A DNA stretch of 64,000 nt from a virus (lineage: Duplodnaviria; Heunggongvirae; Uroviricota; Caudoviricetes), in the IMG/VR virus record IMGVR_UViG_3300028833_000055, positions 32,001 through 96,000 of that record, one strand, 5' to 3'. A program made the position numbers and the translations under genes. The notes below the pieces were generated by a model. That model was not told the DNA's origin, did no database searches, and was given only the letters and a program-made list of their open reading frames with translations. Numbering within the stretch: position 1 is the stretch's first letter; every line of letters starts with the position of its first letter. Positions 11,596-35,894 of the stretch are shown one piece after another.

Positions 11596-11598
11596 ATA

Positions 11599-12132: not shown

Positions 12133-12154
12133 AAAATTGTTTTATTATATAGAA

Positions 12155-12877: not shown

Positions 12878-12907
12878 AAATATACTATATATTCTTAATT
12901 ATTTATG
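12875..12907. promoter_or_regulatory. overlapping divergent CATAAATA late promoters
   Basis: CATAAATA 12875-12882 (+) overlaps the ATG of the - gene; TATTTATG 12900-12907 (-). Confidence 0.6.
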
Positions 12908-12909
12908 TT

Positions 12910-13488: not shown

Positions 13489-13489
13489 A

Positions 13490-14095: not shown

Positions 14096-14102
14096 ATAAA
14101 TT

Positions 14103-15038
14103 ATGGGAATATTATTGAATTTGACAAAAGAGTATTTCGGAGACATCGAAAGAGAAGAGGATATAATTATATCACCTGATGATTTGCCTTACGGTGTGGG
14201 CATTCACGAGTTTATCGACAACAACGGCAAGAAACATAAGACCGGATATTATTCCATAGACGGTTCAATAATAAGTTTAAAAACAATCGTCTATAAGATA
14301 ATGTCCCTTAAAGGAAGGAAATGTGACTTGAATATGGTCGATGTTTCAAACATACAGGATATGACGGATTTATTTAGGGATTTGGAGGACTTTGACTGTG
14401 ATGTTTCCGGATGGGATGTCTCCAATGTGAAATCTATGGAAGGAATGTTTTTTCGTTGTAAAGATTTTAAAGGAGACCTTTCCAGATGGAATACGAGAAA
14501 TGTGACCGATATGGAAGGAATGTTTTACGGATGTTCAGACTTCAATAGTGCAATAGGGGGATGGAATGTGTCCAAATGTCTTTGTTTCAACTATATGTTT
14601 AGTGATTGCAAAAAATTCAATCAAGATATAAGCAACTGGCAACTAAATACGGACGAAAAGAAAAAGATAGAAATGAAAGCTATGTTTTATGGTGCAACCA
14701 TTTTTGACCAGCCGATTGGAAAGTGGAATGTTTCAAGGGTAAAAAGAATGGAAAGCATGTTCAGAGACTGTGTAAATTTCAATCAGCCGCTCGGGGACTG
14801 GGACGTATCCAATGTCGGTGATATGTTTGCGATGTTCTCCGGATGTACAAATTTCAACCAGCCGATTGGAAAGTGGAATATGAAGAAAGTGGAAGATGTA
14901 TCCGAAATGTTCAAGGACTGTATAAATTTCGAACAAGACATAAGTGAATGGAAAATCAGTCCAAAAATAAGAAAGCAAGCGGTTTTCGTCAACTGTCCTA
15001 TATTAAAGAGAAATGTACCGGAAAATTTAAGGAAATAA
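14103..15038 (+). CDS. DUF285/BspA-type LRR protein with MGILLNLT leader
   Basis: About 9 FNQPIGKWNVS..M..MF repeats. Confidence 0.9.
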   Translation: MGILLNLTKEYFGDIEREEDIIISPDDLPYGVGIHEFIDNNGKKHKTGYYSIDGSIISLKTIVYKIMSLKGRKCDLNMVDVSNIQDMTDLFRDLEDFDCDVSGWDVSNVKSMEGMFFRCKDFKGDLSRWNTRNVTDMEGMFYGCSDFNSAIGGWNVSKCLCFNYMFSDCKKFNQDISNWQLNTDEKKKIEMKAMFYGATIFDQPIGKWNVSRVKRMESMFRDCVNFNQPLGDWDVSNVGDMFAMFSGCTNFNQPIGKWNMKKVEDVSEMFKDCINFEQDISEWKISPKIRKQAVFVNCPILKRNVPENLRK

Positions 15039-15041
15039 GCA

Positions 15042-15734
15042 ATGGGAATATTATTGAATTTAACAAAGGAATATTTCGGTGAAATTGAAAGAACAGAGGA
15101 TGAACTTCCGATGTTGGAAAGAACACCGGATGGTGTTCAAATACATAAGTTCAGGGATGCAAACGGAAAAATACACAAGAACGGGTATTATATTCCAACT
15201 GGAAGAAAAGATGTTTTTTACCATTTAGTATCGGAACTTATACGCTTGAGAGGTGTGGGGGCAAACCTCAATGACATAGATGTTTCAAATATCAGAGATT
15301 TAAACAGTGTATTCGGATATGAAGACTTCCGTGGTGATGTGTCGGGTTGGGATACATCAAATGTCATAAGTATGTATCGTCTATTCAAGAGATGCAATAA
15401 ATTCAACTGTGACTTAAACAACTGGGATGTTTCAAATGTGGAAAATTTTGAGGAGATGTTCGATGGTTGTGAAACGTTCAATGGAAACATAAGTAACTGG
15501 AAACTAAGTACCGAAAAGGATATACAAGCCGAATATATGTTTAGGAACTGTTATAAGTTTAATTGTGATATCAGCAAATGGAATGTTTCAAAAATAACCA
15601 ATCCATATGGGATGTTCTGGGGTTGTCATGCCTTCAATAGAGATTTGAGCAATTGGGAAATGACCGATGGTAATGCGTTTATAAATTCCAAGGTGGATAT
15701 GAAGAACCTGCCAAAAAAAATTAAAGTAAAATAA
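15042..15734 (+). CDS. DUF285/BspA-type LRR protein with MGILLNLT leader
   Basis: FNCDLNNWDVSNV repeats. Confidence 0.88.
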   Translation: MGILLNLTKEYFGEIERTEDELPMLERTPDGVQIHKFRDANGKIHKNGYYIPTGRKDVFYHLVSELIRLRGVGANLNDIDVSNIRDLNSVFGYEDFRGDVSGWDTSNVISMYRLFKRCNKFNCDLNNWDVSNVENFEEMFDGCETFNGNISNWKLSTEKDIQAEYMFRNCYKFNCDISKWNVSKITNPYGMFWGCHAFNRDLSNWEMTDGNAFINSKVDMKNLPKKIKVK

Positions 15735-15744
15735 TAAATATCTT

Positions 15745-16470
15745 ATGGGAATATTATTGAATCTGACAAAGGAATATTTCGGTGAAACGGAGAGGGAAGA
15801 GGACAAACTCCCTATGTTGGATGAACTGCCAGGTGGAGTGGAAATACACGATTTCACCGATATGAACGGGAAAAGACACAAGGAAGGATATTATATTCCC
15901 AGTGGGAAAAAAGTACATCTGGCCCGTCTGATTGGTTCTCTAATAGATTTGAGAGGTTTTGACTGCAACTTGAACGATATTGATGTATCAAATATCAAAG
16001 ATATGTCCGGATTATTTTCTCCATATGAAGACTTTCAAGGCGATGTGTCCGGTTGGAATACATCGAGTTGTACAAATATGAAAAGTTTGTTTAGTGGTTG
16101 TGTTCACTTTAACTGCAACTTGAACAAATGGAATGTATCAAAAGTAAAAAATTTCGAAAAAATGTTTTATCATTGCTACAATTTTAACGGAGATATAAGT
16201 GATTGGAAACTAAACACCAAAAAAGTACCCAAAGGTTCACCTTCATATAAACAATCAACCATAGTAACCGATAATATGTTTGAAGACTGTCATAGATTTA
16301 ATTGTGATATCAGTAAATGGGATGTTTCAAATATCATATCGGCATATCATATGATTGCTTGGTGTATTGATTTTCACCAAGATTTAAGTGGTTGGAATTT
16401 AGCTTATAAAAATGAAGAGATAGTCTACGCTTGTGTCAAAATGACGGATGACTTGATGCCCAAACATTAG
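15745..16470 (+). CDS. DUF285/BspA-type LRR protein with MGILLNLT leader
   Basis: FNCNLNKWNVSKV repeats. Confidence 0.88.
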   Translation: MGILLNLTKEYFGETEREEDKLPMLDELPGGVEIHDFTDMNGKRHKEGYYIPSGKKVHLARLIGSLIDLRGFDCNLNDIDVSNIKDMSGLFSPYEDFQGDVSGWNTSSCTNMKSLFSGCVHFNCNLNKWNVSKVKNFEKMFYHCYNFNGDISDWKLNTKKVPKGSPSYKQSTIVTDNMFEDCHRFNCDISKWDVSNIISAYHMIAWCIDFHQDLSGWNLAYKNEEIVYACVKMTDDLMPKH

Positions 16471-19131: not shown

Positions 19132-19159
19132 AAAAAAGAGAGTCGATTGACTCTCTTTT
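19132..19159. terminator. bidirectional intrinsic terminator
   Basis: AAAAAAGAGAGTC-GATT-GACTCTCTTTT. Confidence 0.8.
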
Positions 19160-20072
19160 ATATTAAAGGATAATTTGTTTCCTCCTTTGGTTTGTTTTTC
19201 TTATTCTTGTAGTAGTGTTTTTCTTTTTTCATCTCTTTTCTTTTGAATTTCATTTCTTCAAAAGAAAAATCTTGTTCCTTCATATCGTCACCAAAAAGAT
19301 TTTCACCATATGTTTTTAATGACTCATTCTTTATTCTTCTTTCTGCAATCTTTTTATATTTTTCGGACAATTCAAATCCAATCCAATTACAACCGTATTT
19401 TTCAGCGGATATAGCAGTTGTACCACTACCTATGAACGGGTCTAATACAATTATATTTCCAAGTTCCTTTATCATTTCTTCTGTACCAAGAATACTTGGA
19501 ATAATCCTATCGACAAGTTCTATCGGAAAAGATGCCGGATGTTCATTTTTTATATCAATATTAACAGGCCATATTTCATTAAGTACACTAATTTTACCAC
19601 CGTTATTATATCTTTGACGACTAAATCTAACATTTTTGTTCCCCTTTGTCATCCAATAAATTAGTTCGGTATTTGGGAGATAGTGTGATAGATTTACATT
19701 AATAGAACGTTTTCTATCCCAAATTATAAGTTGTCTAAATACCAATTTACTTTTTAATAACCAAACAGAAGGAAGAATACCAATATTATTCCTTGAACGA
19801 ACTTTATGATTATAAAACAAACTACCACCCTCTTTTAATACACGATGAATTTCATTAAGTATCTCTATCTGCCACTGCTGATATTCACTTTCTTCTTTAT
19901 TGTCCGAATATGTATCATAATCAACTTTTGATGACCACATAGCAGTTTTACCCGATATTTTGTCTCCCATATTATATGGAGGCGAAGTGATAACCAAATC
20001 AATACTATTGTCATCAAGTTCTCTTAATCCATCAAGACAATCGCATAAGTGTATTTTATTTAGCTCCAACAT
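19158..20072 (-). CDS. beta-class N4-cytosine/N6-adenine DNA methyltransferase
   Basis: ITSPPYN (motif IV) before HPASFP and LDPFIGSGTT (motif I). Confidence 0.92.
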   Translation of the reverse strand: MLELNKIHLCDCLDGLRELDDNSIDLVITSPPYNMGDKISGKTAMWSSKVDYDTYSDNKEESEYQQWQIEILNEIHRVLKEGGSLFYNHKVRSRNNIGILPSVWLLKSKLVFRQLIIWDRKRSINVNLSHYLPNTELIYWMTKGNKNVRFSRQRYNNGGKISVLNEIWPVNIDIKNEHPASFPIELVDRIIPSILGTEEMIKELGNIIVLDPFIGSGTTAISAEKYGCNWIGFELSEKYKKIAERRIKNESLKTYGENLFGDDMKEQDFSFEEMKFKRKEMKKEKHYYKNKKNKPKEETNYPLI

Positions 20073-20100
20073 ATCTTATTTAATTTATAACATACTGTAT

Positions 20101-20114
20101 TAAATATAACAAAA
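20101..20114 (-). promoter_or_regulatory. TTTTGTTATATTTA motif (putative middle promoter)
   Basis: Exact 14-mer upstream of the methyltransferase. Confidence 0.6.
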
Positions 20115-20141
20115 AAGGCGAACCATTGATTCGCCTTTTTT
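20111..20141. terminator. intrinsic terminator
   Basis: AAAAAAGGCGAA-loop-TTCGCCTTTTTT after the VWA gene. Confidence 0.75.
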
Positions 20142-20158
20142 GAAAATTAACCATCTCA

Positions 20159-21961
20159 TTATTCTTTCAATGCAGAAACTTTTGTAATTATAACATCTTT
20201 TATTCCCACAACTTCTTTCAAAAGTGAAATTTCCTTTGGAAGGTCACCCGTCCTAACATCCTCATCCTTTTCATAAAAAATAAAAGCACAAATATCTTTA
20301 ATATGACGTGGACAAATTTCAACAAGTCTAGTTGGCGGGTTTGAGTTACCATAAAATGTCCAATATCCGTCACCAAATATGAATATTACTGCATCTTTAT
20401 CTTTTGATTTTATTCTATTTATTTCATTACCAACATCACTGAAATTCTCGATGCCACCACCAATATAACCTCTTTGACTATTAAAATATTCCAATGTATT
20501 TGCCAACACTTTTTCATAACCGTCTTCTTCTAACATCTTATGATTAATAATTCTCGGTAACGATAAATTATCACCAAATACATAGGTGCAGATGTCGGTA
20601 TATTCAAGTCTAAAACACAAATGTAATATTCTACCTAAAAATGCAACGATAAGACCAGGTTGTGAAGCGACAGAACCGGAATAGTCAACAAAGCAATAAA
20701 TTGATTGTGTTTCAGCACCGCCCTTTTCATATTTTTTAAAATATCTCACATCTCTTCTCCACAAATGATTCTTATCACCCAATCTTACTTTTTTTACCTT
20801 CTCGTCTTCAATCTCACCCTTGTGTATAGATTTATCTTTAAGTATTTTTTCCACAAGTTTTTCCCAATCATCATCTTCTATTTTAGCGGCTTTCAAAGAA
20901 TGATATAATATAGATGTTTTTAGTGATGAGTATCCTTTACATTTTTTATCCAGTTCAACCATCGCCTCCCTTCTTATGGAATCCAATTCTGAATCTGACG
21001 GTGGTTCTGCGGAAAGAGCACCTTCCACGGTTGATTCTTTCATTCTTTTTATTTCTTCAGGAGAAAGTTTTGCCGCTTCTATTTCTTTTTCAATTTCTTC
21101 TTTCGATGGTGCAGTTTCAAGTCTTCCAGCCAACGATTTTAATTTGTCAAATTTTTCCTTTTTTCTTGATTTATCACCGATAATTTCTTCTTCTTTCCTT
21201 TCTATATCATCAACAGTACTATTATCGTCTTTAAGTGCTTCAATAAGGTCTTTTAAATCTTCTTTTTCTATATCCGTTCTTTCTTTCAATTTTTCCAAAG
21301 CATCTCCGATGGAACGTTCAAGTTCACTTTTCTTTTTCTCACTATCGACATCATCTTCTCCACTACCCCATTCAGTTTCAGTATCTTCTTTTTTCATTTT
21401 TTTTCTTGATGATTTTTTTGATTCATCATCATCTGTTGAATCATCATCAATATCACTAGATTCGTCGTCTCCATCACCGTCACCAGAACCTTCTCCACCT
21501 TCCGAAGCACTACTAACACTTTTTTTTGATTTGTCTAAAAAGTCATCATAGTCATCACCGGTTTTATAGTCGGAATCACCATCATCTTCAATCTCATCTA
21601 GTGCTTCCGCCTCCAATTCGAGTCTTTTAATAAATTCATCCTCACCCCATTCAATTTCTTCACTTTCCCAATCTTTTTTTGCGTCTTTACTATCATCAAA
21701 AATTGGCAAACGTCTTCTTATGATAGGAGGAAGTGGTGGCTCTGGTGGTAAAATTCTTGGGTCTTCCGAATCTTCATCGGAATCATCATCACTCCCACCA
21801 TTATCCAAAAGTTGTGACTTAACATAATTCCTAACATAAATTATCGCTTGTTCTGCGGTTTCCATATCTTTGGAAATAGGAACATCAGAATAAGAGACTT
21901 CGGTCTCTTTTGATTCCTGTATAGAATTTAACAATACATCTAATTCTTCAAATATATTCAT
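20159..21961 (-). CDS. VWA-like (MIDAS) domain protein with long acidic N-terminal region
   Basis: IYCFVDYSGS (DxSxS), IFIFGDGY; D/E/S-rich linker. Confidence 0.75.
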   Translation of the reverse strand: MNIFEELDVLLNSIQESKETEVSYSDVPISKDMETAEQAIIYVRNYVKSQLLDNGGSDDDSDEDSEDPRILPPEPPLPPIIRRRLPIFDDSKDAKKDWESEEIEWGEDEFIKRLELEAEALDEIEDDGDSDYKTGDDYDDFLDKSKKSVSSASEGGEGSGDGDGDDESSDIDDDSTDDDESKKSSRKKMKKEDTETEWGSGEDDVDSEKKKSELERSIGDALEKLKERTDIEKEDLKDLIEALKDDNSTVDDIERKEEEIIGDKSRKKEKFDKLKSLAGRLETAPSKEEIEKEIEAAKLSPEEIKRMKESTVEGALSAEPPSDSELDSIRREAMVELDKKCKGYSSLKTSILYHSLKAAKIEDDDWEKLVEKILKDKSIHKGEIEDEKVKKVRLGDKNHLWRRDVRYFKKYEKGGAETQSIYCFVDYSGSVASQPGLIVAFLGRILHLCFRLEYTDICTYVFGDNLSLPRIINHKMLEEDGYEKVLANTLEYFNSQRGYIGGGIENFSDVGNEINRIKSKDKDAVIFIFGDGYWTFYGNSNPPTRLVEICPRHIKDICAFIFYEKDEDVRTGDLPKEISLLKEVVGIKDVIITKVSALKE

Positions 21962-21988
21962 ATTAAAATATTTTTTATTTAATTATGT

Positions 21989-23860
21989 TTAATCTTCTGT
22001 CGGTAATTTGAATTCTCGTCTAAGACCTTTTTCACCTAATTCTTCATATATTTTGTATAATCTTTTATACTCTTCATAATATGCTTTTTTATACTCCTCT
22101 GAAGGTCTTACTTTCGCTTGTCTATGAAATTCTGTTCCGATTCTTCTTAAAGAAGAAAGTGCAATTTTAACAACACTTACATATTCTGTTTCCGTGTGTT
22201 CTTCTTTTAAAAAGTCAAACATATGTGTCGTATCCTCATAGAACGCATCAACCAAACCTGTAAAAAAACGGTCATCTCTGTCAATAAGTATCTTCTCTTC
22301 TCTCAATCTTTTCAAATTTTCAAAGAACGATTCTTTTAATTTTCCTATCACCACATAAATTTCAGTCAAATCACTTTCATTAATATCGTGTATTTCTTTT
22401 TCCAATAGAGGTTTTACCAAATCTGCATATTCATTACACAACTCAAATGACTTTTCATCCAACCTTTCGTGATAATAAATGGCCGCCATATCTTTTATTC
22501 TTAAATAGTAATTGTGAAGAATATGTTTTTTTCTTTTTTCTTCTCTAAGTTTTTCCGCTCTTTTTTTACGCCTCTCTTTCAATTCCTTCATCTTTCTCTC
22601 AAACTCTTCCTTTAACTTATCCTTTTTCAGATTATCGGCAATAAGTTTACTGATAGAATATATGATTTTTTCGGATATTTCATCCCTTTCGTCATAAGTT
22701 AATTTGGTTTCTCTATTCAAACGAACAACACCATCAACCAAAGTAGTCCAACATTCTTCATTGTCCTTTAAAAAGACATCTTCATCCAAAGTAAATTTCT
22801 CACTGATTTTTGTAACACATCTCTCCATTTCTTTTTTTAATGTGTCAACATCATCAATAAAACCATTAAGGTCACTACTTGTCATATTAACGGGACTTAC
22901 ATCAAGGTCATCTATAACTTTTTTCAAATACGGTCCAATTTCACCAATTTCTTTTATTCGTGTTTTTTGGAGCATTTTAAGTCTCTTTCTTATTGTCATT
23001 TTTGTTTTACTTTCACCAAAAAGTTTTTCAATAATGTCTCTAAGTTTTGTGGAGGCAATATCTTTATCTCTTTCTGTGGAATTTGGGTCACGAAGTACTT
23101 TTAATGCTTCAAAAATTGCCTTCAGCGCCTCTAAATATTCCGGTGGTAAAACTGTACCACCGTTAGATAAATATCTTTTTAATAGTTCATCACCATTTTC
23201 TCTATATATGTCCTCATACATTTTTCCAAAGTAATCTTTATCGAATACGCCTTTCATTTCTTTCCAGAAATCTGCTGTTACAACACCATCGGCAACCATA
23301 TTGCAGTTTACTTCCATATCTGCACATATATTTTGTTTGGTTATTTCCAACTCATATAATTCTTCACTTGTCATTTTCAATTTTCGTCTATCTTCCATAG
23401 GTAAAATTTTTAGACCTATTGATAAATGATTCAGAAAATTATGCATCAACTCGTGGAATAAAATACCAAAGATTTTTTTTACATCACAATCCAAATTATT
23501 GTATATAAAATGTACATTTAACCACAAATTACCAAGATTATCCACAGACATTGTTTTATGAAAACAATTTTTATCTTCGGGATTCGCTAAAACATACATT
23601 GGTCTACAATGTTGAATATATGAATACATAAAACTATACTTACTTCCAATTAGTCCAAGCGCTTTATCCACAGACTGTATTATCGTTTTTAATTCAACAT
23701 CAACAATTTTATCCAAAGACTCTACATACATTGGAATTTTACCAACCCTTAAAGTTGCCAATTTGTTTCCTGCCGATTTATCTGTTACCGATTCAATCAG
23801 TCTATATCCTTGCTTGTTTCTGATATTGTATCTATCATATATCAAATCATTATATACCAT
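21989..23860 (-). CDS. HExxH putative metallopeptidase (DUF2201 N-terminal-like) with coiled-coil tail
   Basis: TMSVD...LWLN..F...GILFHELMH...NICADMEVN. Confidence 0.75.
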   Translation of the reverse strand: MVYNDLIYDRYNIRNKQGYRLIESVTDKSAGNKLATLRVGKIPMYVESLDKIVDVELKTIIQSVDKALGLIGSKYSFMYSYIQHCRPMYVLANPEDKNCFHKTMSVDNLGNLWLNVHFIYNNLDCDVKKIFGILFHELMHNFLNHLSIGLKILPMEDRRKLKMTSEELYELEITKQNICADMEVNCNMVADGVVTADFWKEMKGVFDKDYFGKMYEDIYRENGDELLKRYLSNGGTVLPPEYLEALKAIFEALKVLRDPNSTERDKDIASTKLRDIIEKLFGESKTKMTIRKRLKMLQKTRIKEIGEIGPYLKKVIDDLDVSPVNMTSSDLNGFIDDVDTLKKEMERCVTKISEKFTLDEDVFLKDNEECWTTLVDGVVRLNRETKLTYDERDEISEKIIYSISKLIADNLKKDKLKEEFERKMKELKERRKKRAEKLREEKRKKHILHNYYLRIKDMAAIYYHERLDEKSFELCNEYADLVKPLLEKEIHDINESDLTEIYVVIGKLKESFFENLKRLREEKILIDRDDRFFTGLVDAFYEDTTHMFDFLKEEHTETEYVSVVKIALSSLRRIGTEFHRQAKVRPSEEYKKAYYEEYKRLYKIYEELGEKGLRREFKLPTED

Positions 23861-23916
23861 AAGATATTATTTTATATATATTTATTTGGGATTATCTACT
23901 TTTTGTTATTATACTG

Positions 23917-23948
23917 CAAAGATACTATTTTTTTGGAATTTTTGCAAG
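23917..23948 (-). promoter_or_regulatory. Bacteroidota-type sigma promoter (CTTG-N20-TATCTTTG)
   Basis: Matches -33 TTG and -7 TAnnTTTG with 20-nt spacing. Confidence 0.7.
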
Positions 23949-23970
23949 TTTAAGTAGATAATTCCATATT

Positions 23971-23978
23971 TATTTATG
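23971..23978 (-). promoter_or_regulatory. CATAAATA late promoter
   Basis: Directly after the terminator, upstream of the HExxH gene. Confidence 0.55.
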
Positions 23979-24014
23979 AAAAAAAAAAGTGTCAGATTAC
24001 TGACACTTTTTTTT
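23979..24014. terminator. intrinsic terminator
   Basis: A-run-GTGTCAG-ATTA-CTGACAC-T-run. Confidence 0.8.
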
Positions 24015-24020
24015 CATTTT

Positions 24021-26987
24021 TTAATTCATATCTGCATAATCAATATCATAAGTTTCACCAACAAAATTGATATAATCAGCCAAATTCTGTCTTATCGGTT
24101 CATCTTCGGGATATTCTTCACTTCTTATTTTAAGAATATTGGACACAATATCAGTATGAAGTTTTATCAAATGGTCCGAACTCAGTTCACCATATGCTTT
24201 GTCAAGGTTTTTCGCCATTTGTAAAAACATTTCACCTATTTCCGGTGTTCCTTTTGCAACAGTACTTCTTTTGTATTTTGACATAATGTAGTTTTCAACA
24301 GACTTCACTGCTTCCGTAACGTGATATACGGTCGTGTCTATATCTACCGGACCTTCAAATAAAGATTTTGTCGAAGGTCTAGATGAACCAAGTTTCCTGA
24401 TTCTATCCATATAAGTACAATATTCATCGGCTATCGGTAATCCAATTGTTGCAATGGCTTGTTTTTTCAATAAACCTGGGTCAATTTCAAGAATACTATC
24501 CAAATCAAATTTGACAAGCATATCGTGAACCCAAGACATTAAATTTGACCAAGAACGTGGTGATGCAAAAATCATTTTATTTTCCGAACCAAGTTCGTGG
24601 AACTTTTCTGGGTCTAAATCGTGCCACCTTCTATATACTCTTGTTTTACTTAATCTACCTTTTTTACCGATTGTTTCTACATCTTCAAAATTGTCTGGTG
24701 AATCGAATGAAATAAATTGCAATGTATCTTCATCAAAATAACCACTTTCTCTTGCCCATTTAGACCAAACTGCAAAATCTGGAACAAAATTAAATGCACC
24801 ACCAGATATTCTGTTACCAAACGCTGGAGCAAGTTTTGCAAAACGCTTTTTAACTTCATCGTCATCACAAGGTCTATTTGAACAAGCTATAATAGACCAC
24901 TTTGAACCAATTCTATATCCACCAGAAGTTTGTCTTTTTGTTATTAACTGCATAATTGTTTTGAACAATTCGTCATCAGCACGTAAAAATTCATCAAACA
25001 TTATTATACCGCCTTCATAAGTTGCTTCATCAACCGGTTCAAATTCTTCAAATGCATCATTCCAAACCATATCCTCAACATAATATGTATTGGCATATAA
25101 GTTTTTTGCTCTATTGACTTTTATATCGGTACTTGGTTTATAAACAGGAAGCCAAGTTTTTGGAGATTCTTCTGTTTGTAGAATACGAACTTTTTCCAAA
25201 TTTGCAATGTCTGTACTATCAAAACCTAATTCCACCAATTTTTTAGCAAGACCACTTTTCTCTCCTATAACTTTATCCATAGTTGTATCATCTGGCATAG
25301 GAAGATAAAGACCACCTAATTCCAAATCACCACATTCAATAACAATAACCGATTTCTTTTTATTTGGATTCGACTTATTGTATTCTTTAATGATTTCTTG
25401 AGGTATTGTTGTCTTACCAATACCCGGTGCTCCAAAAATAAATGTTGCTCTTGAAGATTTTCTACCTGTTGTGGAAGGATTATCTTCCATAATGGATTTC
25501 ACCATTGTTTCAAAATCTTCACTTGAAATATCTGGAATATTATCAAGAAAACTTCCCTTTGCCGAAAGAGGAACTCTTGCTTCTTCTACCGCACTAAGTT
25601 TATATCCATCATCAAACGCCAAATCTGGATTTGCCATCATATCAATCCATTTCAAAAAGTTTTTATATTCTTGTGATTTTTTGTCGATAAAATCATAAAA
25701 ACCTTTTTTCTTATCGAGATATGCGGTTGATTCAACATTTTTATTAAGTAATGGTGAATCAATCTTTGTGAATGCACTAACACCTTTCACATTACCTCCG
25801 GCAAGATAATTAAGTGTCGTATAGACATTGGTCTCATCTTTCATTTCACCATCTTTTGTGAAAGTTGCAACATAGAAGTTATTGAGTTTTATCATAAAAG
25901 AATTTATCTTCTGTTTAATTTTCTTAACACCTCTCTTCACACCGCTTTTAATGGTGTCATATAGACCTTCGTTTACAAATTCGTCTATTGTTAAAACGTG
26001 TTTATTTTCTTTCATAGTTTTTGTTTTTGTTTTTTTATCCAATTCATCGAGTTCTTTTAATTTTTTTAAAATTCTTTCATTTTTTGTTGCGTTTATATCA
26101 ACAAGACGAGCACCTATTTTTGGTAACTCTGCACTTTCCCATCTTTTGACAACTCTATGTCTTCCGGTCTCAACACCAGTTTTAGGGTCAATCTCGGGTT
26201 CTATTTTTGCATGTCCACGTTCGTCAAATACTGTTACGAGAACTTTACCGGGATTCCATCCGGAAATATCGTGTGAAAACCTAGATTCGGTAAACATATT
26301 TTTAAAATTTATACACGAACTAACATCCCAATTTTCTATTGATGGATTGTCGAATGTTGATTTATAAAACATACCTTCCATATTCTTGACATTAGAAACA
26401 TCCCAACTAGATAAATCCAAATTAGGAATGTTTGCAAATGCAAACAATGCCGCCATATTCTCAACATTGGATGTATCAAGAAGACAAATCATAGGATTTG
26501 TTTGTTCGTTTTCTTTATTGTCTTCAGAAATACATCTATTATACCAGGCATTTACAACAACGAATATATTATGTTCATAATCCTTACCATTATTTACATA
26601 ATATCTTCCCCTTATCTTGGAGACTATTTCCTTTTCTTCACTAGATGGAACAAGAGTAACTGGTTCTGGTTCAATTTCCAAATCGTCGTCTACTTCAAAC
26701 CCTTCTCCCTCATCATCGTCATCGTCGATTTCATCACCGGTTTTATCGTCAATTTCATCTTTTACTTTTTCGATTCCTGGTTCTTTTTTAACGACTTTCA
26801 TCCCCTCATCCAATTTACAATATTCACTTAAATCTATAGACTCATTTAATTCTATAAGATTTTCGTTTTTTTCGAACCATTCATCAAACATCAGAAGAAA
26901 CTCTTTATTACTAAGGTTAGGATATTTTTTATTTGTTTCGTTAACCCAATTCCTAACATCTTTACTGAAAAATTGTTCTTTTGTCAT
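24021..26987 (-). CDS. DUF285 LRR - MoxR-like AAA+ ATPase fusion protein
   Basis: LSSWDVSNVKNMEGMF repeats in the N-third; GAPGIGKT, IIMFDEFLRA, IIACSNRP, APAFGNR, SPRSW in the C-part. Confidence 0.85.
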   Translation of the reverse strand: MTKEQFFSKDVRNWVNETNKKYPNLSNKEFLLMFDEWFEKNENLIELNESIDLSEYCKLDEGMKVVKKEPGIEKVKDEIDDKTGDEIDDDDDEGEGFEVDDDLEIEPEPVTLVPSSEEKEIVSKIRGRYYVNNGKDYEHNIFVVVNAWYNRCISEDNKENEQTNPMICLLDTSNVENMAALFAFANIPNLDLSSWDVSNVKNMEGMFYKSTFDNPSIENWDVSSCINFKNMFTESRFSHDISGWNPGKVLVTVFDERGHAKIEPEIDPKTGVETGRHRVVKRWESAELPKIGARLVDINATKNERILKKLKELDELDKKTKTKTMKENKHVLTIDEFVNEGLYDTIKSGVKRGVKKIKQKINSFMIKLNNFYVATFTKDGEMKDETNVYTTLNYLAGGNVKGVSAFTKIDSPLLNKNVESTAYLDKKKGFYDFIDKKSQEYKNFLKWIDMMANPDLAFDDGYKLSAVEEARVPLSAKGSFLDNIPDISSEDFETMVKSIMEDNPSTTGRKSSRATFIFGAPGIGKTTIPQEIIKEYNKSNPNKKKSVIVIECGDLELGGLYLPMPDDTTMDKVIGEKSGLAKKLVELGFDSTDIANLEKVRILQTEESPKTWLPVYKPSTDIKVNRAKNLYANTYYVEDMVWNDAFEEFEPVDEATYEGGIIMFDEFLRADDELFKTIMQLITKRQTSGGYRIGSKWSIIACSNRPCDDDEVKKRFAKLAPAFGNRISGGAFNFVPDFAVWSKWARESGYFDEDTLQFISFDSPDNFEDVETIGKKGRLSKTRVYRRWHDLDPEKFHELGSENKMIFASPRSWSNLMSWVHDMLVKFDLDSILEIDPGLLKKQAIATIGLPIADEYCTYMDRIRKLGSSRPSTKSLFEGPVDIDTTVYHVTEAVKSVENYIMSKYKRSTVAKGTPEIGEMFLQMAKNLDKAYGELSSDHLIKLHTDIVSNILKIRSEEYPEDEPIRQNLADYINFVGETYDIDYADMN

Positions 26988-27000
26988 ATATTAAAATTTT

Positions 27001-29037
27001 TTATTTATCTCTTGTTGCATCAATCTTCATATTTCCGAGAATTTTTTCTCTCCATCTTTTTTGTCCAAAGAACAAATATTCCCTGATATTTTTAATGATA
27101 CCCCAATTCATCAATCCATATATCTCGTATTCGGTATTATAGTTACCCTCTATAACATCATCAATCATATTCAAAACTTCTTCTAGATTATAATCTGGAA
27201 TTGAAGATTCTGTTGGTAAAAGTTTTAAATCATTTGGTATACTTTCATCGTTCATATCACTAACGATTTTTCTTCTTAACCAATACCAGACAACTTTTCT
27301 TGTAGGACTGATGTCTATTGGTTCCATTCTCCTTTGTAAAGCACCCCAGTGGTCTTTTGCAGTTTTTATAAATGTTGTTAATGTCTGATTAGATATATAT
27401 ACGATAATACCATTAAAATAGAATCCGTCCGGTATCAAGACTTTTGCATTTTCTTCTTCAAATTTTTCAAAGTCTCTTAATGCAGTTTCTTTGACACTCT
27501 CGTCACTTATCATCGCTTCCCATTCTGGAGATGTTCTTGAAAGTTTTTCTTTTTTTCTATAATAATCACGAATTTCACTCTCTTTCTTTTTTAACCATCT
27601 TTCCTTTTCATATGGTGTAAATTTACCAACTTCTCTGAAATATGATTCTTGTCTTGTTACATCGGCCTTCTGTGCGGCATAATATATATCACTTTTTCCT
27701 CTAACTTCACCATCGGGTGATACAATCCAGCGTTTCTTTTCTTCTGCCTCCATTGCACCTTTCCACAAAGAAATTTTCGATTCTGTATTGAACATTTCTG
27801 GTGTATCATCATAAATCAGCAACATATTATTATTTTCGTACAATTCTTTATAGACCTCTCTTGCACTTGTAGTTGCATTACCCATCCTCTTATAATGAAC
27901 ACCGTTAATAAGACCCGTATCTACTATTGCCTTATCCAATGAATAAGATTTACCTATACCAGCGACACCTGTGATAAGTAAACCCCTATGTGTACCAATT
28001 TCTCTTCTAATCGAAATATCCCTACCACCACTCTTAATATATTTACAAATCGCTTCCGATGCATCATAAACAGAGTCCATTTTTTCTTGTAATTCATCAA
28101 CTCTTTTTTCCACAATGCCTTTGGCTTCTTTGACGACGTGTCCTCGTCCAGCTATAACTTCAACCGCTATTTCACCAGATGCACCAGCACCCCAGAACCA
28201 AAGGTTAGGTAATTTTGATGCGATTGCCGCTGGCGCATCACCAACATTACCACATATAACAAAATGTATAAAGACAACAAATCTCATTGCCGATACATAG
28301 TCGATTGTTCCATCGTGTTTTTTACCAATAACCGCTCTTACCGTTTCAAGATATTCATCATCCTCTTCCAAATCTTGAATCTTTAAAACGATTTCATTAT
28401 CCGTTTTATCATTATAATTTTTAATAAATTCTTCCATAAGGTCTTGGTTGAACTTATCGACAGAAGCAGAATCATCATAAAGATTTTTATAAATCTTTTG
28501 CCAAGCTATTGCTTTATATGGTACGGGTGCCGTAACCTCTTCATTTAAACCAGCATTCGTATTATCAAGAGTTAAAATGGAAATCAATGTACTCACAGCT
28601 TTTGTTATTCCGAACTTACTTGTTGAAACGGAAAATTCAGACTTTAAGTCTGGAAAATCTGCTGGATTTTTTGTAAAAAATGTAATAACTTTATTGATAC
28701 CTTCTTTATATATAGCAAAATATTTAGTACCGCTTTCAGAAGAAATCAACGAACAGTCTTTACCGTCAATTTTGAAAACAAAAGGAGAAACCAAAAAATT
28801 ATCATTTATATTTTTTCTTAAATTATTAAGTACAAGAAGTGTCATTTTTGAAAGAATTTTGTTATCATAAACCATTTCCAAATCTGGTTCACCATAAGTT
28901 TCCAATTCTTTCTGTTCCACTGAATCAAGAACAACATCGTTTCCAAAACTTTCGTTGCTCTCCATAATTCTGGAAGTTCCTCTATTCAAAAAACTGTTAA
29001 AACTTTCAATCATATTTTTATGTTTTATTTTATACAT
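27001..29037 (-). CDS. P-loop/AAA ATPase domain protein (likely start MIESF at 29013)
   Basis: LLITGVAGIGKS, LLIYDD, IVYISN, ALQRR. Confidence 0.75.
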   Translation of the reverse strand: MYKIKHKNMIESFNSFLNRGTSRIMESNESFGNDVVLDSVEQKELETYGEPDLEMVYDNKILSKMTLLVLNNLRKNINDNFLVSPFVFKIDGKDCSLISSESGTKYFAIYKEGINKVITFFTKNPADFPDLKSEFSVSTSKFGITKAVSTLISILTLDNTNAGLNEEVTAPVPYKAIAWQKIYKNLYDDSASVDKFNQDLMEEFIKNYNDKTDNEIVLKIQDLEEDDEYLETVRAVIGKKHDGTIDYVSAMRFVVFIHFVICGNVGDAPAAIASKLPNLWFWGAGASGEIAVEVIAGRGHVVKEAKGIVEKRVDELQEKMDSVYDASEAICKYIKSGGRDISIRREIGTHRGLLITGVAGIGKSYSLDKAIVDTGLINGVHYKRMGNATTSAREVYKELYENNNMLLIYDDTPEMFNTESKISLWKGAMEAEEKKRWIVSPDGEVRGKSDIYYAAQKADVTRQESYFREVGKFTPYEKERWLKKKESEIRDYYRKKEKLSRTSPEWEAMISDESVKETALRDFEKFEEENAKVLIPDGFYFNGIIVYISNQTLTTFIKTAKDHWGALQRRMEPIDISPTRKVVWYWLRRKIVSDMNDESIPNDLKLLPTESSIPDYNLEEVLNMIDDVIEGNYNTEYEIYGLMNWGIIKNIREYLFFGQKRWREKILGNMKIDATRDK

Positions 29038-29040
29038 AAT

Positions 29041-29048
29041 TATTTATG
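29041..29048 (-). promoter_or_regulatory. CATAAATA late promoter
   Basis: Heads the ATPase cassette. Confidence 0.6.
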
Positions 29049-29057
29049 AAAACACTT

Positions 29058-30704
29058 TCAGCATTTATTCAAATGACTGAAAGTGTCTTTCTTCGTGGTT
29101 TCAAAAACATTGTCAAACATAATATTCTCCAATCTAGCGTGATGTATGAGGAATATGTTGAGTTTTAACTCTTCGCCCAGTTCCTTCAACAGTTGGAGCA
29201 TATCCGACACACCGTCTATGTCTATGTTACTGAAAAGTTCGTCTATGAAAAGCAGGTTTAATTCACCATATTGTAATTTCAATAGTTTCACAAAACTTAT
29301 TATGGTGGCGAAATCGACCCTTTTCTTCTCACCCATACTCAAAGTGTTGTATCCGACCTTCATACCGTTCTGCATAATCGTAGTGTTGAAACTATTGTCG
29401 AACACAACGGAATATGGGAGATTCATAAATTCTATCGTTGATGCTATTATACTATTAAGGTCTTTTATATAGGATTTTGCTATCCTCTGTTTTATTCCGT
29501 TTTCGTCACCGAGAAGTTTAAGGAGTATGGCGTATTCCGTCCTTTTCTCTGTAAGGGTGTTCTGTTCATCCGTAAGCTTTATTATGTCCTTTTCAATTTG
29601 TTCCTTTGTTCTCAAAAGGGGGTCTATCTTCTCCCCGTTTATCATCATCTTACTTTTGAGGTCGGACTTCAGTTCCAGTATTTCAGACCTTTTACTATTG
29701 TTCTTAAACTTCAATATATTGCTGTCAAGGAGTTTTATCTTCTTAACGGTATCCTCTATTATAGTGTTCACCTTCCAGATTGTGTCTTCACATTCACCCC
29801 TCTCTTCAACGAGGTTCTGTCTTTCCTTTACAAATTCCTCCGTTTCAAGGGAACTTCCACAAGTGGGACATCTTCCGGAATCAATAAGGGCTATCTTTTC
29901 GTCTATCTCTGAAATCCGTTTTCTGGCACTTTTTATGTCACCGTTGTTCTCGATGGCGTTTTTCTTCATCTCATCGAGTTTGGTCTGGAGTTTCTCGATA
30001 TTTTTATCGTTAATCCTCTCACTCTCCTCGTTCTCGTTTATCTTTCTTGAAAGTTCATCAAGTTCATCCTGTGTCACGGAGTTGTTCTTCAACTCTTCAA
30101 TCTGTTGTAGAATCCTCTCCTTTGAACTACTGTTTGTCTTCAACGAACCTGATTTCTCGGAAATCTCACCGTCGAGGTATTTGACATCCTCCTTCACCAT
30201 CTTCAACATATCGTTGAAAATGGTGAACCCGAAAATACGGTCTATAATGTTCCTCTTGTCCGCTGCACTCAGATTGACAAGAGACTTGAAATCGTTTATC
30301 GAAAGGACGATTATGTTCTTGAATACGGAATAGGGGATACGGAAATAGTTCTCCTCCAACATAGACTGGACATTGTTCTTTCCGGCTGTGTCTATTTCAT
30401 TTCCGTCTATCGTAACCTTGAACATCGACGGTGCAAGACCACGCTCTATTATTACTTCGTGTCCGTCACAGTCAAGTTCAAGTTTACCATAGAAGTTCTT
30501 GTTTGTCCTGTTGGGGATTTCAGATGAAGTGAACCCTTCAATCTTACCGTACATCAGATATGTTATACATTCTGAAATACTGGTCTTTCCGGTTCCGTTT
30601 GAACCCACTATCAAGTTCAGGCACGCTTCATCTGAAAAGTCAAGTTCTGTCATCGCATTGGAATACGACTTGAAATTTTTCCAGCACAGTTTCTTTAATT
30701 TCAT
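29058..30704 (-). CDS. recombination nuclease ATPase subunit (T4 gp46/SbcC/Rad50-like)
   Basis: KNFKSY, GSNGTGKT, CPTCG zinc hook, LSMGEKKR signature, LLFIDELFSNID. Confidence 0.92.
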   Translation of the reverse strand: MKLKKLCWKNFKSYSNAMTELDFSDEACLNLIVGSNGTGKTSISECITYLMYGKIEGFTSSEIPNRTNKNFYGKLELDCDGHEVIIERGLAPSMFKVTIDGNEIDTAGKNNVQSMLEENYFRIPYSVFKNIIVLSINDFKSLVNLSAADKRNIIDRIFGFTIFNDMLKMVKEDVKYLDGEISEKSGSLKTNSSSKERILQQIEELKNNSVTQDELDELSRKINENEESERINDKNIEKLQTKLDEMKKNAIENNGDIKSARKRISEIDEKIALIDSGRCPTCGSSLETEEFVKERQNLVEERGECEDTIWKVNTIIEDTVKKIKLLDSNILKFKNNSKRSEILELKSDLKSKMMINGEKIDPLLRTKEQIEKDIIKLTDEQNTLTEKRTEYAILLKLLGDENGIKQRIAKSYIKDLNSIIASTIEFMNLPYSVVFDNSFNTTIMQNGMKVGYNTLSMGEKKRVDFATIISFVKLLKLQYGELNLLFIDELFSNIDIDGVSDMLQLLKELGEELKLNIFLIHHARLENIMFDNVFETTKKDTFSHLNKC

Positions 30705-31103: not shown

Positions 31104-33056
31104 TTACCTTAATGTTATTTTATCGTTTTCAATTACCGCTTCAAGGATATCCTCCTTCTTTCCAAGTATCTTGGATTCATTGACCACAAGGTTGGCGACC
31201 TCTTCCTCTATCTCCTGTTCAAGAAGTCTTATAATCGGTCTTGCACCATTGTGTTCCTCCTCCACCTTGTTTAATATCCAGTTTTCCACTTCGTCACTCA
31301 ATACAATATCCTTGTGGATTATATTTCTGATATTGACGTTCATTTCCTTCATTTCCTTCTGTAAGATTTTCTTCAAAACATCACGACCTAGATTATTGAA
31401 ATAACATACGGAGTCAAGTCTGTTCAAAAATTCCGGAGAGAACCTCTTGGCGAGAGCCTTCCTCATAATACTCTCCTCCTTCTTGTTCTTCAATTCCTCG
31501 TAATTTTCGGTGAAACCCATAGGATTGGAGAGTTCCTTCGCCGACTTTACTCCGATATTCGATGTAAAGATTATGAGAGCCTTGCTTCCATCCACCTTCA
31601 CGCCATCGGAACCGGTTATACTACCTTCATCGAGAAGCTGTAACAAGACATCGTAAATCTTCGGATGTGCCTTTTCAATCTCATCGAAAAGACATACACA
31701 TTCGGGTTTTTTGGACAGACCCTTGACAAGAAGACCACTCTCCTTGTATCCGACATAACCGGGGGCGGAGCCGAGAAGTTTAGAAACATCGACTTCCGAC
31801 TGAAATTCGGACATATCGAACCTTATTATATTCTCTTCACTGCCAAAAAGGTTCTTGGCGAGAGACTTTGCAAAGGCCGTCTTTCCGACACCGGTAGAGC
31901 CTATGAACATATAGTTGCCGGCCGAATGTGCCTTCTTTCTCAATCCGAGACGGTTTCTCCTTATGTTCTTCACAATCTTGTCGATAGTTTCATCCTGTCC
32001 TATGATATCCTTCCTTATTTCATCCGGAAGGTTTCTCAAAAATTCGGTCTTGTCTTTCGAAAGTTTTGTCATAGGAACATTTACTATGAATCCTATCGCT
32101 TCAAGAACATCATTTTCCGTAACCTTGACTTTCCTTTTGTTCCTGTTCAACTGCTTTATTTTATCTTCTATAACTTCCGATTGATTATTAAGTTCCTTAA
32201 ACTTGTGATAATCACCTTTTTGAGCATAAACACTCATTTCATTCCTCAATTTGGAGTTTTCCATTGCCAGTTCTTCCGCCTTTCTGCTCCCCGCTCTTTT
32301 GTTACGGTACAGATATGAACAAACCTCTTCGAGAAGGTCTTCCCCTTTCTTCGGGAACGGGAATCTCTTTATGTACTTGTCTGCGTTTTCACACACCATT
32401 TCACAGACTCCTTCCGGAAATATTATCTTGTACTCGTCTTCGAAATACGGGATTAAATCCGTGAGGATTTCACAAGTCTGCTCTTTATTGAGTTCAACTG
32501 GTCTTATTATGGTGAAATAGTCGAGAACTTTCTTGAAATGCTTGTCAAGTTCGTTGTACTCGTCGTTAGTGGCCGTTGAAATAACCCTCAAACCTTCATA
32601 TTCTATGTGTTTCAAGAACTCGTTCAAGAAAATATACCCTCCGTTTTCAAAACAGTTGGTGTTTATCACGTGTCCGAGATTTTCCACGAATATTATATTG
32701 TCCCATCTCTCGTCCGTCTGAACATACCTGAACACTTCCTTCAAACCCTCAACATAGTCCTTCTTGCTGTTGACATAGTTCATAATGGTCGTGAAGTCAA
32801 AATGTATCACCCTGAAAGACGGATTTTTCTCAACGAAAGCCTCGATTATGCTTCTTTTTCCACAACCGTAGTCACCCACGAGAAGCACGGACTTGTTGTT
32901 GCACTTGTCCATTATGTTACGGATTCTCTCTATTTCATTGTCCCTGAATTTCACTTCAAAATCCGACCTCTGGACAATATCACCTATATAAAGTTCAATC
33001 TTTTGATTTTCACCTTCTTTTGAATTCGGTTTTATTTCCCTATAAATTTCACCCAT
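31104..33056 (-). CDS. Clp/Hsp100 ATPase (ClpC-like) lacking the N-domain
   Basis: IIGQDE, GSTGVGKT, RFDMSEF, GSAPGYVGY, LFDEIEKAH, PEFLNRLD, GARP; degenerate first NBD. Confidence 0.9.
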   Translation of the reverse strand: MGEIYREIKPNSKEGENQKIELYIGDIVQRSDFEVKFRDNEIERIRNIMDKCNNKSVLLVGDYGCGKRSIIEAFVEKNPSFRVIHFDFTTIMNYVNSKKDYVEGLKEVFRYVQTDERWDNIIFVENLGHVINTNCFENGGYIFLNEFLKHIEYEGLRVISTATNDEYNELDKHFKKVLDYFTIIRPVELNKEQTCEILTDLIPYFEDEYKIIFPEGVCEMVCENADKYIKRFPFPKKGEDLLEEVCSYLYRNKRAGSRKAEELAMENSKLRNEMSVYAQKGDYHKFKELNNQSEVIEDKIKQLNRNKRKVKVTENDVLEAIGFIVNVPMTKLSKDKTEFLRNLPDEIRKDIIGQDETIDKIVKNIRRNRLGLRKKAHSAGNYMFIGSTGVGKTAFAKSLAKNLFGSEENIIRFDMSEFQSEVDVSKLLGSAPGYVGYKESGLLVKGLSKKPECVCLFDEIEKAHPKIYDVLLQLLDEGSITGSDGVKVDGSKALIIFTSNIGVKSAKELSNPMGFTENYEELKNKKEESIMRKALAKRFSPEFLNRLDSVCYFNNLGRDVLKKILQKEMKEMNVNIRNIIHKDIVLSDEVENWILNKVEEEHNGARPIIRLLEQEIEEEVANLVVNESKILGKKEDILEAVIENDKITLR

Positions 33057-34129: not shown

Positions 34130-34160
34130 AAAAAGGGTGTCCGTCAAGACACCCTTTTTT
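34130..34160. terminator. intrinsic terminator
   Basis: AAAAAGGGTGTC-loop-GACACCCTTTTTT. Confidence 0.75.
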
Positions 34161-34617
34161 AACATTTTATCATTTCCTTGAAAAAACTGCTCATAACATC
34201 CACGACAATCGAATTTCCAGCGAGTTTCAACATCTGTGCATCCGACAGACCCGTTTCCTTTATCCGGTCGGCTTCATCCCTTTCAAGCCCCATAAGGAGA
34301 AGACCTTCATAACCACTTAACTCCCTGACCTTGTATTCACCCTCGTCCGTTATCAGAATTTTAGGTGCCATACATAATGTGAGTGTAGTACAACACCCCT
34401 TGGCAGAATACACCCTTCCGTCCTGAGGATTTCGAAAATTCTTCCTGTTGATTCTCAAATTTCCGAGTTGAATAAGATGTGGGGTTTTGTCGATTTCAAC
34501 ATCATCAGTCTTTTCACCAAAAAGATTTTCATCCGCCATTATTTCCTCGTCTAACTGTTTGACGAGAGTGTTGACGTGTTTACTTTGTTTTCCCTTCTTT
34601 ATTTTACTTACATCCAT
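34159..34617 (-). CDS. C5-cytosine methyltransferase, C-terminal subunit (TRD, motifs IX-X)
   Basis: TTLT, VRELSGYEGLLLMG (IX), KLAGNSIVV (X). Confidence 0.8.
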   Translation of the reverse strand: MDVSKIKKGKQSKHVNTLVKQLDEEIMADENLFGEKTDDVEIDKTPHLIQLGNLRINRKNFRNPQDGRVYSAKGCCTTLTLCMAPKILITDEGEYKVRELSGYEGLLLMGLERDEADRIKETGLSDAQMLKLAGNSIVVDVMSSFFKEMIKC

Positions 34618-34830: not shown

Positions 34831-35550
34831 TTATTTTTGTTCCACTGCGAATTTAAGAAAATGTTTGTTGTAATGAATATAATTGTCAACGATTTCCTTA
34901 TTGACACACAATTTATTGTACAAGTCTTCACCAAGTTCCTCCTTTGTAAGCATATAGTCCTCCATCGAAGTCTTTACGCCGGTCGGTTTCGGGAACTCGA
35001 ACTCGTTCTCCGGATTCATAATGGAAACCATATAAACCCTCCTTCTGTCTTGTGGAATACCATATTCAAGACCACATAGAACTTTCCAGTAAGATGTATA
35101 TCCTATCGAATCAAGGAAATTTACCCACTTCATAAAAGTTGGTATAAAGTTCCTTGAAACCAACATCTTCACATTCTCCAACATCAGATATTTCGGTTTC
35201 TTGATTTCAATCGCTTTCTTGCATTCCCACAAGAGAGAGGATTGTGTTCCCGAACCTTCCTCACCGCCCAACATCCTGCCGGCAATACTGAACGAAGTGC
35301 AAGGCGAACTGTAAGTAAAGAAATCAAAATCAGGTACTTGTGTCCAGTCAATCTTGCAGATGTCTCCGTAGTTTCTGTCCTTGTATTCGGGAAACAAGGC
35401 ATCGTGTGCTATAATGGCTCTCTTTTCTATCTCACTCCATCCGACCAAATCAAATGGTATCCCCGCCTTCCGTAAAGCGAGACACTGACTGTCGTAACCG
35501 GAAAATGTAGTAAACACCCTCAAAGGGTTTTCTTCAGTGTATTTCATCAT
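34831..35550 (-). CDS. C5-cytosine methyltransferase, N-terminal subunit (motifs I-VIII)
   Basis: FSGYDS, SSPCTSFS, MLENV, PQDRRRVY; lacks motifs IX-X. Confidence 0.88.
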   Translation of the reverse strand: MMKYTEENPLRVFTTFSGYDSQCLALRKAGIPFDLVGWSEIEKRAIIAHDALFPEYKDRNYGDICKIDWTQVPDFDFFTYSSPCTSFSIAGRMLGGEEGSGTQSSLLWECKKAIEIKKPKYLMLENVKMLVSRNFIPTFMKWVNFLDSIGYTSYWKVLCGLEYGIPQDRRRVYMVSIMNPENEFEFPKPTGVKTSMEDYMLTKEELGEDLYNKLCVNKEIVDNYIHYNKHFLKFAVEQK

Positions 35551-35877: not shown

Positions 35878-35894
35878 TATTTATGACATAAATA
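35878..35894. promoter_or_regulatory. palindromic back-to-back late promoters TATTTATG-A-CATAAATA
   Basis: Perfect 8-bp inverted repeat with a 1-nt spacer between divergent genes. Confidence 0.65.

Follow-up and report, generated by a model that had tools for sequence, protein, structure and literature searches.

A four-gene cassette of a huge phage as a probable enlarged, split form of the MoxR-like ATPase and DUF2201 metallopeptidase-VWA module

The phage ATPase and metallopeptidase-VWA pair and its four-gene relative

MoxR AAA+ ATPases and their VWA partners act as remodelling chaperones (PMC7159879; PMC4124505), and a pair consisting of a MoxR-like ATPase and a DUF2201 protein, which joins a zinc metallopeptidase to a VWA domain, is common in phages and mobile elements, occurring in PA5oct-type jumbo phages, in Lak phages and, by published description, in N4-like phages. 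Here we describe a cassette of four large, co-oriented open reading frames (ORFs), named g1 to g4 in order of transcription, in a window of 64,000 bases (bases 32001-96000 of IMG/VR virus record IMGVR_UViG_3300028833_000055, which holds 363,334 bases and is ~96% complete according to CheckV). The cassette is probably an enlarged, split form of that phage module, with the mechanism set out below: as judged by sequence comparison, g2 is the ATPase, and g3 and g4 are the peptidase and VWA halves of what is a single chain in related phages. A preliminary description of this DNA had listed four co-oriented large genes for an AAA ATPase, a MoxR-type ATPase, an HExxH protein and a VWA protein; the four ORFs were recovered on the minus strand (Table 1), and profile, alignment and Foldseek searches bore out all of the domains. 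Its statement that no function had been described holds for the four-gene form, whose core pair is already known as a common phage module.

In the cultured jumbo phage PA5oct (NC_071039.1), the pair (PHROG 1297 and 1314; PQE65_gp149/gp144) comprises an AAA_5/AAA_3 ATPase of 371 amino acids (aa) and a 394-aa DUF2201_N+DUF2201 protein, encoded by adjoining, co-oriented genes as in our cassette. The AAA_5/MoxR-like motifs, the HExxH of the DUF2201_N zincin and the DxSxS of the VWA domain are all present here. Furthermore, g3 matched phrog_1314, and the ATPase half of g2 matched phrog_1297 (6.4e-22) and aligned with the PA5oct partner ATPase at an hhalign probability of 97.5, which supports the MoxR-type pairing proposed earlier. 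The compact pair has one peptidase-VWA protein of ~390 aa and an ATPase of ~370-400 aa, whereas here g3 (623 aa) and g4 (600 aa) carry long helical and acidic extensions, g2 (988 aa) bears a PARCEL-repeat head, and an extra NTPase, g1, and two promoter/terminator units are present. We also observed that the PA5oct ORF at 238080-239264, labelled 'HNH endonuclease', is a DUF2201_N + DUF2201 metallopeptidase-VWA protein (Pfam 6.3e-43 and 3.8e-19) and that the PHROG 1314 annotation is likewise wrong.

A fused protein of 819 aa, P0099, connects the split genes to the single-chain form. It aligned with the g3 peptidase domain at 39% identity (hhalign probability 100) and, through its C-terminus, with the g4 VWA domain at 30% identity (hhalign probability 99.4). 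This fusion is strong evidence, at the level of domain architecture, that g3 and g4 would act as one unit, and it bears out the claim that HExxH and VWA domains normally share one chain and are split here. The g4 VWA profile matched only 79 representative proteins among 1.84 billion, and its distant matches included single chains with an N-terminal DUF2201_N and a C-terminal VWA domain. When viral contigs were scanned with g3 or P0099 as a single sequence, nothing was returned.

A two-gene arrangement was found in phage Lak-A1 (MK250016.1, ~75.4-80.9 kb), in which a 931-aa ATPase homologous to the ATPase half of g2 is followed directly by an 859-aa DUF2201_N-VWA ORF, detected with the Pfam DUF2201_N model and a fused-form profile. 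Unlike in our cassette, the peptidase and VWA domains are still fused there, and the g2-family profile matched the ATPase part only; profiles of g1, g3 and g4 found nothing within 12 kb of the Lak-A1 ATPase. The Lak-A1 ATPase ORF (11260-14052 of the examined fragment) reaches 931 aa only when TAG is read as sense (Gln), and translation table 11 yields a 430-aa piece. Phage N4 encodes an AAA ATPase, gp24, and a vWFA protein, gp25, with no function assigned (PMC2784036), and its likeness to our cassette rests on that published description and on matches to N4-like roseophages. In Delftia phage RG-2014, an AAA ORF and a VWA+DUF2201_N ORF lie near dUTPase and thymidylate synthase genes (PMC5735904).

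More distant systems combine a MoxR-type ATPase with a VWA partner in other settings. The p618/p892 pair of Acidianus two-tailed virus (ATV) is by description a viral MoxR-type ATPase with a stimulating VWA partner, thought to remodel viral proteins (PMC4124505); it differs in having no metallopeptidase, in belonging to an archaeal virus and in the demonstrated virion association of p618. The MoxR-vWA 'ternary' conflict systems of multicellular bacteria likewise join a MoxR ATPase to a vWA partner, and some include peptidase effectors (PMC7159879), whereas our cassette is phage-encoded, its Pfam matches were DUF285, AAA_5 and DUF2201_N only, and it had no PADLOC match, VMAP not having been specifically searched. 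A known anti-phage defence system was rejected, as none of the four proteins had a PADLOC match at E <= 0.01; so was a Mg/Co chelatase (BchI/BchD, CobS/CobT), no such Pfam match being found in the four proteins or in members of the g4 family. The likeness of g4 to chelatase subunits is confined to a general layout of acidic linker and VWA domain, and a Gordonia phage 'CobT-like' protein was a weak fold neighbour of g4, at rank 48.

A profile scan of IMG/VR yielded nine related loci (L001 and others of huge phages). The preliminary description had listed a lack of co-occurrence in relatives among its refuting conditions, and this one did not apply: the order g1-g2-g3-g4 was found in eight of the nine, at 24-44% identity; the ninth, L001, reads SbcC-g2-g3-g4, with g1 not found elsewhere on that 64-kb fragment. 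In all nine, as here, g3 and g4 are separate ORFs. Loci of the L002 type are flanked by genes for a DnaB-like helicase, an AAA protein and a Dam methylase, by PhoH and by a tail sheath gene. For g3, 63 homologues were found in a set of 5.8 billion proteins, on contigs of up to 420 kb; g3 and g4 alone gave no tblastn match in GenBank phages. A protein designated P0002 is 78% identical to g3. This clade offers a natural dissection of the module, with protease and adaptor encoded individually behind a promoter of their own and a conserved, presumed recognition head on the motor. It allows a direct comparison of fused and split forms, making subunit contacts and client recognition testable by co-expression.

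Domains and conserved residues of the four proteins

In g2, an acidic tract is followed by the PARCEL/DUF285 head (approximately residues 116-250), a linker in which the motif [FI]DxFVNEG is conserved, and the ATPase (approximately residues 510-930). The head, which contains PARCEL repeats, matched Pfam DUF285 (7.6e-18, residues 161-249) and was among the best-conserved parts of the protein across nine homologues, in which the Walker A, Walker B and sensor motifs (GAPGIGK, DEF, CSNRP) were invariant. The MoxR AAA_3 model gave no match for g2 in the Pfam scan; the PA5oct homologue scored 24 bits with AAA_5 and 21 bits with AAA_3. From its motifs and profile matches, we classify g2 as an AAA_5/MoxR-like ATPase with a PARCEL/DUF285 head. 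Paralogues of the head occur at about seven other places in the genome, including 12155-12877 and 13490-16470 of the window and 24.1-25.2, 123.3-124.3, 222.7-224.2 and 240.4-240.9 kb of the genome. Several of these paralogues begin with an MGILKNLT tag or an FNEYIRE-type (FxEYIxE) start, and L001 carries five PARCEL/DUF285 genes in tandem.

The g3 protein consists of a DUF2201_N zincin (approximately residues 30-250, with HELMHxxxxH and DxEVN motifs) and a helical extension of ~370 aa with a Lys-rich stretch. In an alignment, H136, E137, H140, H145, D181 and E183 were invariant in 20 of 20 homologues. The DUF2201_N model (PF13203) matched 19 of the 20 g3 relatives (best E 1.2e-6), and the window protein itself had no Pfam match. 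Given the invariant catalytic residues and the matches of its relatives, g3 is probably an active peptidase.

The g4 protein has a conserved N-terminus of ~50 aa, a strongly acidic low-complexity tract that contains a Pro-rich run close to residue 72, and a VWA domain at the C-terminus. The acidic tract carries a net charge of -18 to -25 per 50 residues in all homologues, and the VWA motifs DxSGS, ...ENF and FGD include the invariant residues D426, S428, S430 and D531. When an AlphaFold model of residues 331-600 (pLDDT 69) was compared with the PDB by Foldseek, the top matches were all VWA or integrin I domains (E ~1e-5, probability 1.0); against viral models (BFVD), the top phage neighbours were VWA or metallopeptidase-VWA proteins of ~370-410 aa. 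PDB sequence searches with each of the four proteins and each family profile gave nothing meaningful.

The remaining protein, g1, is an AAA+/STAND-like P-loop NTPase, with a Walker A motif GxxGIGKS and a Walker B motif hhhhDD. It matched phrog_1250, its relatives matched AAA_22, AAA_16 and nSTAND models, and the structural matches of its model were AAA+ proteins only. The Walker A-Walker B core of g1 resembles T4 NrdC.10 (37% identity over 84 residues, hhalign probability 95.8), a core type with tblastn matches in 956 phage records, mostly T4-like. Whereas NrdC.10 is a stand-alone protein of 326 aa, g1 adds a beta-rich domain at the N-terminus as well as long linkers and is co-transcribed with g2. 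We rejected the idea that g1 and g2 are paralogues, as they have only the P-loop in common. The start of g1 is probably Met9, encoded by the ATG at 29013 (670 aa, 27001-29013), because all homologues begin at that position with a conserved MIKKFxxF, the protein-atlas entry starts from that residue, and the spacing from the promoter-like element is then 27 nt rather than 3 nt.

Proposed mechanism and competing explanations

In the enlarged-module reading, g3 and g4 would associate, and one guess is that the Lys-rich helical tail of g3 would lie on the conserved N-terminus or the acidic tract of g4. The VWA domain of g4 would dock on the AAA+ ring of g2, grip an acidic residue of the client through its metal site, or do both, while the conserved PARCEL-repeat head of g2 would select one protein client. 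ATP hydrolysis would remodel that client and the intact g3 zincin would cut it. The role of g1 would be that of an accessory, NrdC.10-like switch-type NTPase co-transcribed with g2, and the g1-g2 and g3-g4 units would each be served by their own promoter, the octamer CATAAATA, and terminator. Candidate roles include host takeover, phage protein maturation and the removal of DNA-bound proteins. As a further guess, contacts or DNA mimicry might be provided by the Lys-rich helix in g3 together with the acidic tracts in g4 and g2.

Several points weigh against this reading. The metal-site Thr (GGGT in the fused forms) reads Glu in g4 (GGGxENF), as seen by motif alignment and not in the model, and metal-dependent ligand binding by g4 may differ from the usual. 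The AAA_5 score of g2, 21.5 bits, falls just below the Pfam cut-off of 22, and the g2 family profile had no match among PDB sequences. The proposed g3-g4 contact was guessed from patterns of charge. Moreover, g1 yielded a model of low quality (pLDDT 56) and is missing from L001.

Among the alternatives, we weighed an assembly chaperone for virion parts, whose clients inside the infected cell would be PARCEL/DUF285-repeat proteins of the phage itself, the g2 head being a copy of the client fold; we regard it as unlikely. ATV provides a precedent, as such a role has been proposed for p618 and p892: p618 is a MoxR ATPase of the virion and binds both p892, the VWA protein, and tail proteins (PMC4124505). 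The g2 head has the paralogues described above, some of them with an MGILKNLT tag or an FNEYIRE-type start, the cassette of the L002 type lies ~1.5 kb from a tail sheath gene, and the promoter class is common to structural genes. However, a pure chaperone needs no intact, invariant zincin, and the virion status of the PARCEL paralogues is an assumption. The compact pairs of PA5oct and N4 type (371-398 plus 388-394 aa) are also too short for a head of the g2 type, so that a head-specific role cannot explain the whole family.

Less likely again is a DNA-linked role, in which the machine would act during replication and repair on proteins caught on the DNA of phage or host (for instance nucleoid proteins, restriction proteins or protein-DNA adducts), removing or cleaving them. 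Here the cassette is flanked by SbcC, clamp-loader and ClpB-like genes and, at its other end, by a DNA methyltransferase gene; in the L002 type, genes for a DnaB-like helicase and a Dam methylase flank it at one end and PhoH at the opposite end. A methyltransferase adjoins the cassette in two clades, and homologues of N4 gp24/gp25 stand beside DNA-metabolism genes in a roseophage ORF table (PMC2784036). The poly-acidic tracts of g2 and g4, which are conserved, could mimic DNA. Against this, domain scans found a DNA-binding domain in none of the four proteins, L001 is without the methyltransferase, and gene neighbourhood is weak evidence in mosaic phage genomes.

A third explanation, the reading of the preliminary description, we consider still less probable: N-terminal tags would bring all four proteins into the capsid, where the prohead protease would trim them, and after ejection into the host they would remodel or degrade targets there. 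The phage encodes a prohead protease of the T4 gp21 type, and the pattern [FY]xx[FY][IVL]x[ED], which we take to be similar to the T4 capsid targeting sequence (CTS), was found in 13 ORFs at residues 5-9, where 3.6 were expected; AT-rich codons near starts could inflate this count. The g1 family keeps two aromatics, F5 and F8 counted from Met9, in its conserved MIKKFxxF start, and an internal FDxFVNEG that includes invariant residues is present in relatives of g2. Targeting by the T4 capsid targeting sequence depends on its residues 4 and 7, whereas processing is directed by residues 8 and 10 (PMC9026906). In the g1 family, no conserved [IVL]xE follows directly after the aromatics, leaving g1 without the acidic cleavage position, and g2, g3 and g4 lack such an N-terminus altogether. 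An IMES site is not conserved in the homologues. As to the earlier claim that both ATPases carry CTS-like and LNE/IMES-type motifs, g1 alone among the four proteins has a conserved N-terminal FxxF that resembles a targeting tag.

Both transcription units use CATAAATA, which also lies upstream of the tail sheath gene; the same element, however, heads the clamp-loader/SbcC operon and is not exclusive to structural genes. The gene neighbours of the cassette and its relatives belong to DNA metabolism (SbcC, clamp loader, methyltransferases, DnaB-like helicase, PhoH). The record of the PA5oct partner ATPase carries an 'ESI-MS/MS' note, and the PA5oct paper lists 93 particle-linked products; yet this mass-spectrometry list includes seven virion-unrelated enzymes, and the PA5oct DUF2201 protein has no such note. 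The least probable of the explanations is a modular head-directed protein-destruction machine, with an exchangeable PARCEL head on a MoxR-type motor and a VWA adaptor with a zinc protease, loaded into the capsid through the CTS-like N-terminus of g1; if true, one chosen host or phage protein would be attacked at the first moment of infection.

The [FY]xx[FY][IVL]x[ED] pattern is exemplified by MIKNFEEFINE and MKRIKTYEEFIND and occurs at 7853-8461, in the 18961 and 20163 regions and at 58527-59549 of the window. A looser form was present in ~22 ORFs, and most ORFs with the motif lie behind CATAAATA. The pattern may represent a second class of tag beside the MGILKNLT tag.

Transcription units, base composition and neighbouring genes

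The octamer CATAAATA occurs in 81 copies in the genome. Downstream of 64 of them, an ATG-initiated ORF of 50 aa or more begins within 40 nt, the usual distance being 20-28 nt; octamers related to it showed a far poorer association with ORFs. It lies upstream of a tail-sheath homologue (genome 95618-98782), which was missed by the PF04984 profile and found with the sheath protein of a relative, and upstream of the gp21-type prohead protease ORF. A further copy at 35885 (-) heads the run of cytosine methylase pieces, clamp-loader, ClpB-like and SbcC genes, within which we found no convincing terminator. By its distribution, CATAAATA is a real, genome-wide promoter-like element of this phage. Because it heads both structural genes and the clamp-loader/SbcC run, its assignment to a 'late' class is not proven, the motif as read from its positions being common to structural and DNA-metabolism genes.

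The regulatory layout was compared in eight related loci, L001-L008. The junction of a terminator and CATAAATA between g2 and g3 was present in seven of the eight (L001-L004 and L006-L008, not L005), and the layout was kept among relatives with only ~30% protein identity. In L001, the same terminator-promoter arrangement as precedes g1 here precedes g2. This conserved layout identifies g1-g2 and g3-g4 as two conserved transcription units, as far as motif positions define them. The preliminary description had bounded the cassette by a promoter motif and a terminator, and both were recovered (Table 1). It had also placed a terminator, a late promoter and a host-type promoter between the gene pairs; the terminator and the phage motif CATAAATA held up, the late timing is not proven, and the host-type promoter did not survive. 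The candidate for the latter was a single TATCTTTG at 23917-23924, and we rejected it as evidence because the match is at chance level: TANNTTTG is not enriched in the window, which has 58 occurrences compared with an expected 66.

Table 1. Positions of the cassette genes, the adjoining methyltransferase gene and the regulatory elements in the window
Feature	Position	Strand	Remarks
g1	27001-29037	-	678 aa from ATG at 29037
g2	24021-26987	-	988 aa
g3	21989-23860	-	623 aa
g4	20159-21961	-	600 aa
N6/N4 DNA methyltransferase	19158-20072	-	Pfam N6_N4_Mtase 8.8e-39; GC3 0.23
Hairpin and T-run closing the SbcC operon	29052-29086	-	seen in the sequence; directly before the g1 promoter element
CATAAATA promoter-like element P1 for g1-g2	29041-29048	-	upstream of g1 also in L002-L008
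Intrinsic terminator after g2	23981-24014	-	15-pair hairpin; kept in relatives
CATAAATA promoter-like element P2 for g3-g4	23971-23978	-	~110 nt before g3 ATG
Intrinsic terminator after g4	20110-20142	-	hairpins downstream of g4 in all relatives

Two side observations concern these elements. The spacer from the g3 promoter element to the g3 ATG (23861-23970) is ~85 bases longer than in relatives, and the additional bases include a 5-codon mini-ORF immediately after CATAAATA. Elsewhere in the window, back-to-back, partly palindromic elements (TATTTATG...CATAAATA) serve divergent gene pairs, at 4881-4906, 12868-12914, 35878-35894 and 59565-59581.

The cassette has a guanine-plus-cytosine (GC) content of 32.1%, compared with 40.1% for the whole 363-kb genome, and ranks second lowest among 709 windows of 8.9 kb. 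GC at third codon positions (GC3) forms a sharp island, with values of 0.21-0.24 in g1-g4 and the adjoining N6/N4 methyltransferase gene, 0.48-0.56 in the SbcC, ClpB-like and clamp-loader genes on one flank and 0.48 in a gene for a 285-aa protein on the other. The cassette is thus more AT-rich than its flanks, as had been noted from the sequence. Cassettes of related phages, however, have an AT content no higher than that of their own flanks; AT-richness as a property of the cassette as such was therefore rejected, and it marks the history of this genome rather than the genes.

The locus L001 is collinear with our window, with flanking genes 52-90% identical and g2-g4 43-56% identical, and has neither g1 nor the methyltransferase at the corresponding position; its overall GC content is ~32%. 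From the GC3 island, the base composition of the relatives and the comparison with L001, we infer that the block 19158-29048, comprising the cassette and the methyltransferase gene, was probably imported as a unit from a relative of lower GC content. The GC3 island also suggests that the whole block, methyltransferase included, moves between huge phages as one unit. No near-identical DNA was found in GenBank phages.

Upstream of the cassette, the window holds the SbcC, ClpB-like and clamp-loader genes and the cytosine methylase pieces. The ClpB/ClpA-like protein (650 aa, 31104-33056, -) has two AAA modules (AAA_2 8e-49 and ClpB_D2-small), and its gene sits two genes upstream of the cassette, a gene that L001 has as well. 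The C5 cytosine DNA methylase is divided between two ORFs (34159-34617 and 34831-35550, both -) that correspond to the N- and C-terminal parts of the Pfam model and are separated by a gap of ~210 nt. Single genes for proteins of ~375 aa at 10465-11595 and 53881-55008 have GC3 values of 0.28 and 0.18 among genes of ~0.5 and may be recently inserted mobile genes. Finally, the gene for a T4-type large terminase subunit (8492-10492, -) encodes an intein splicing domain near the N-terminus.

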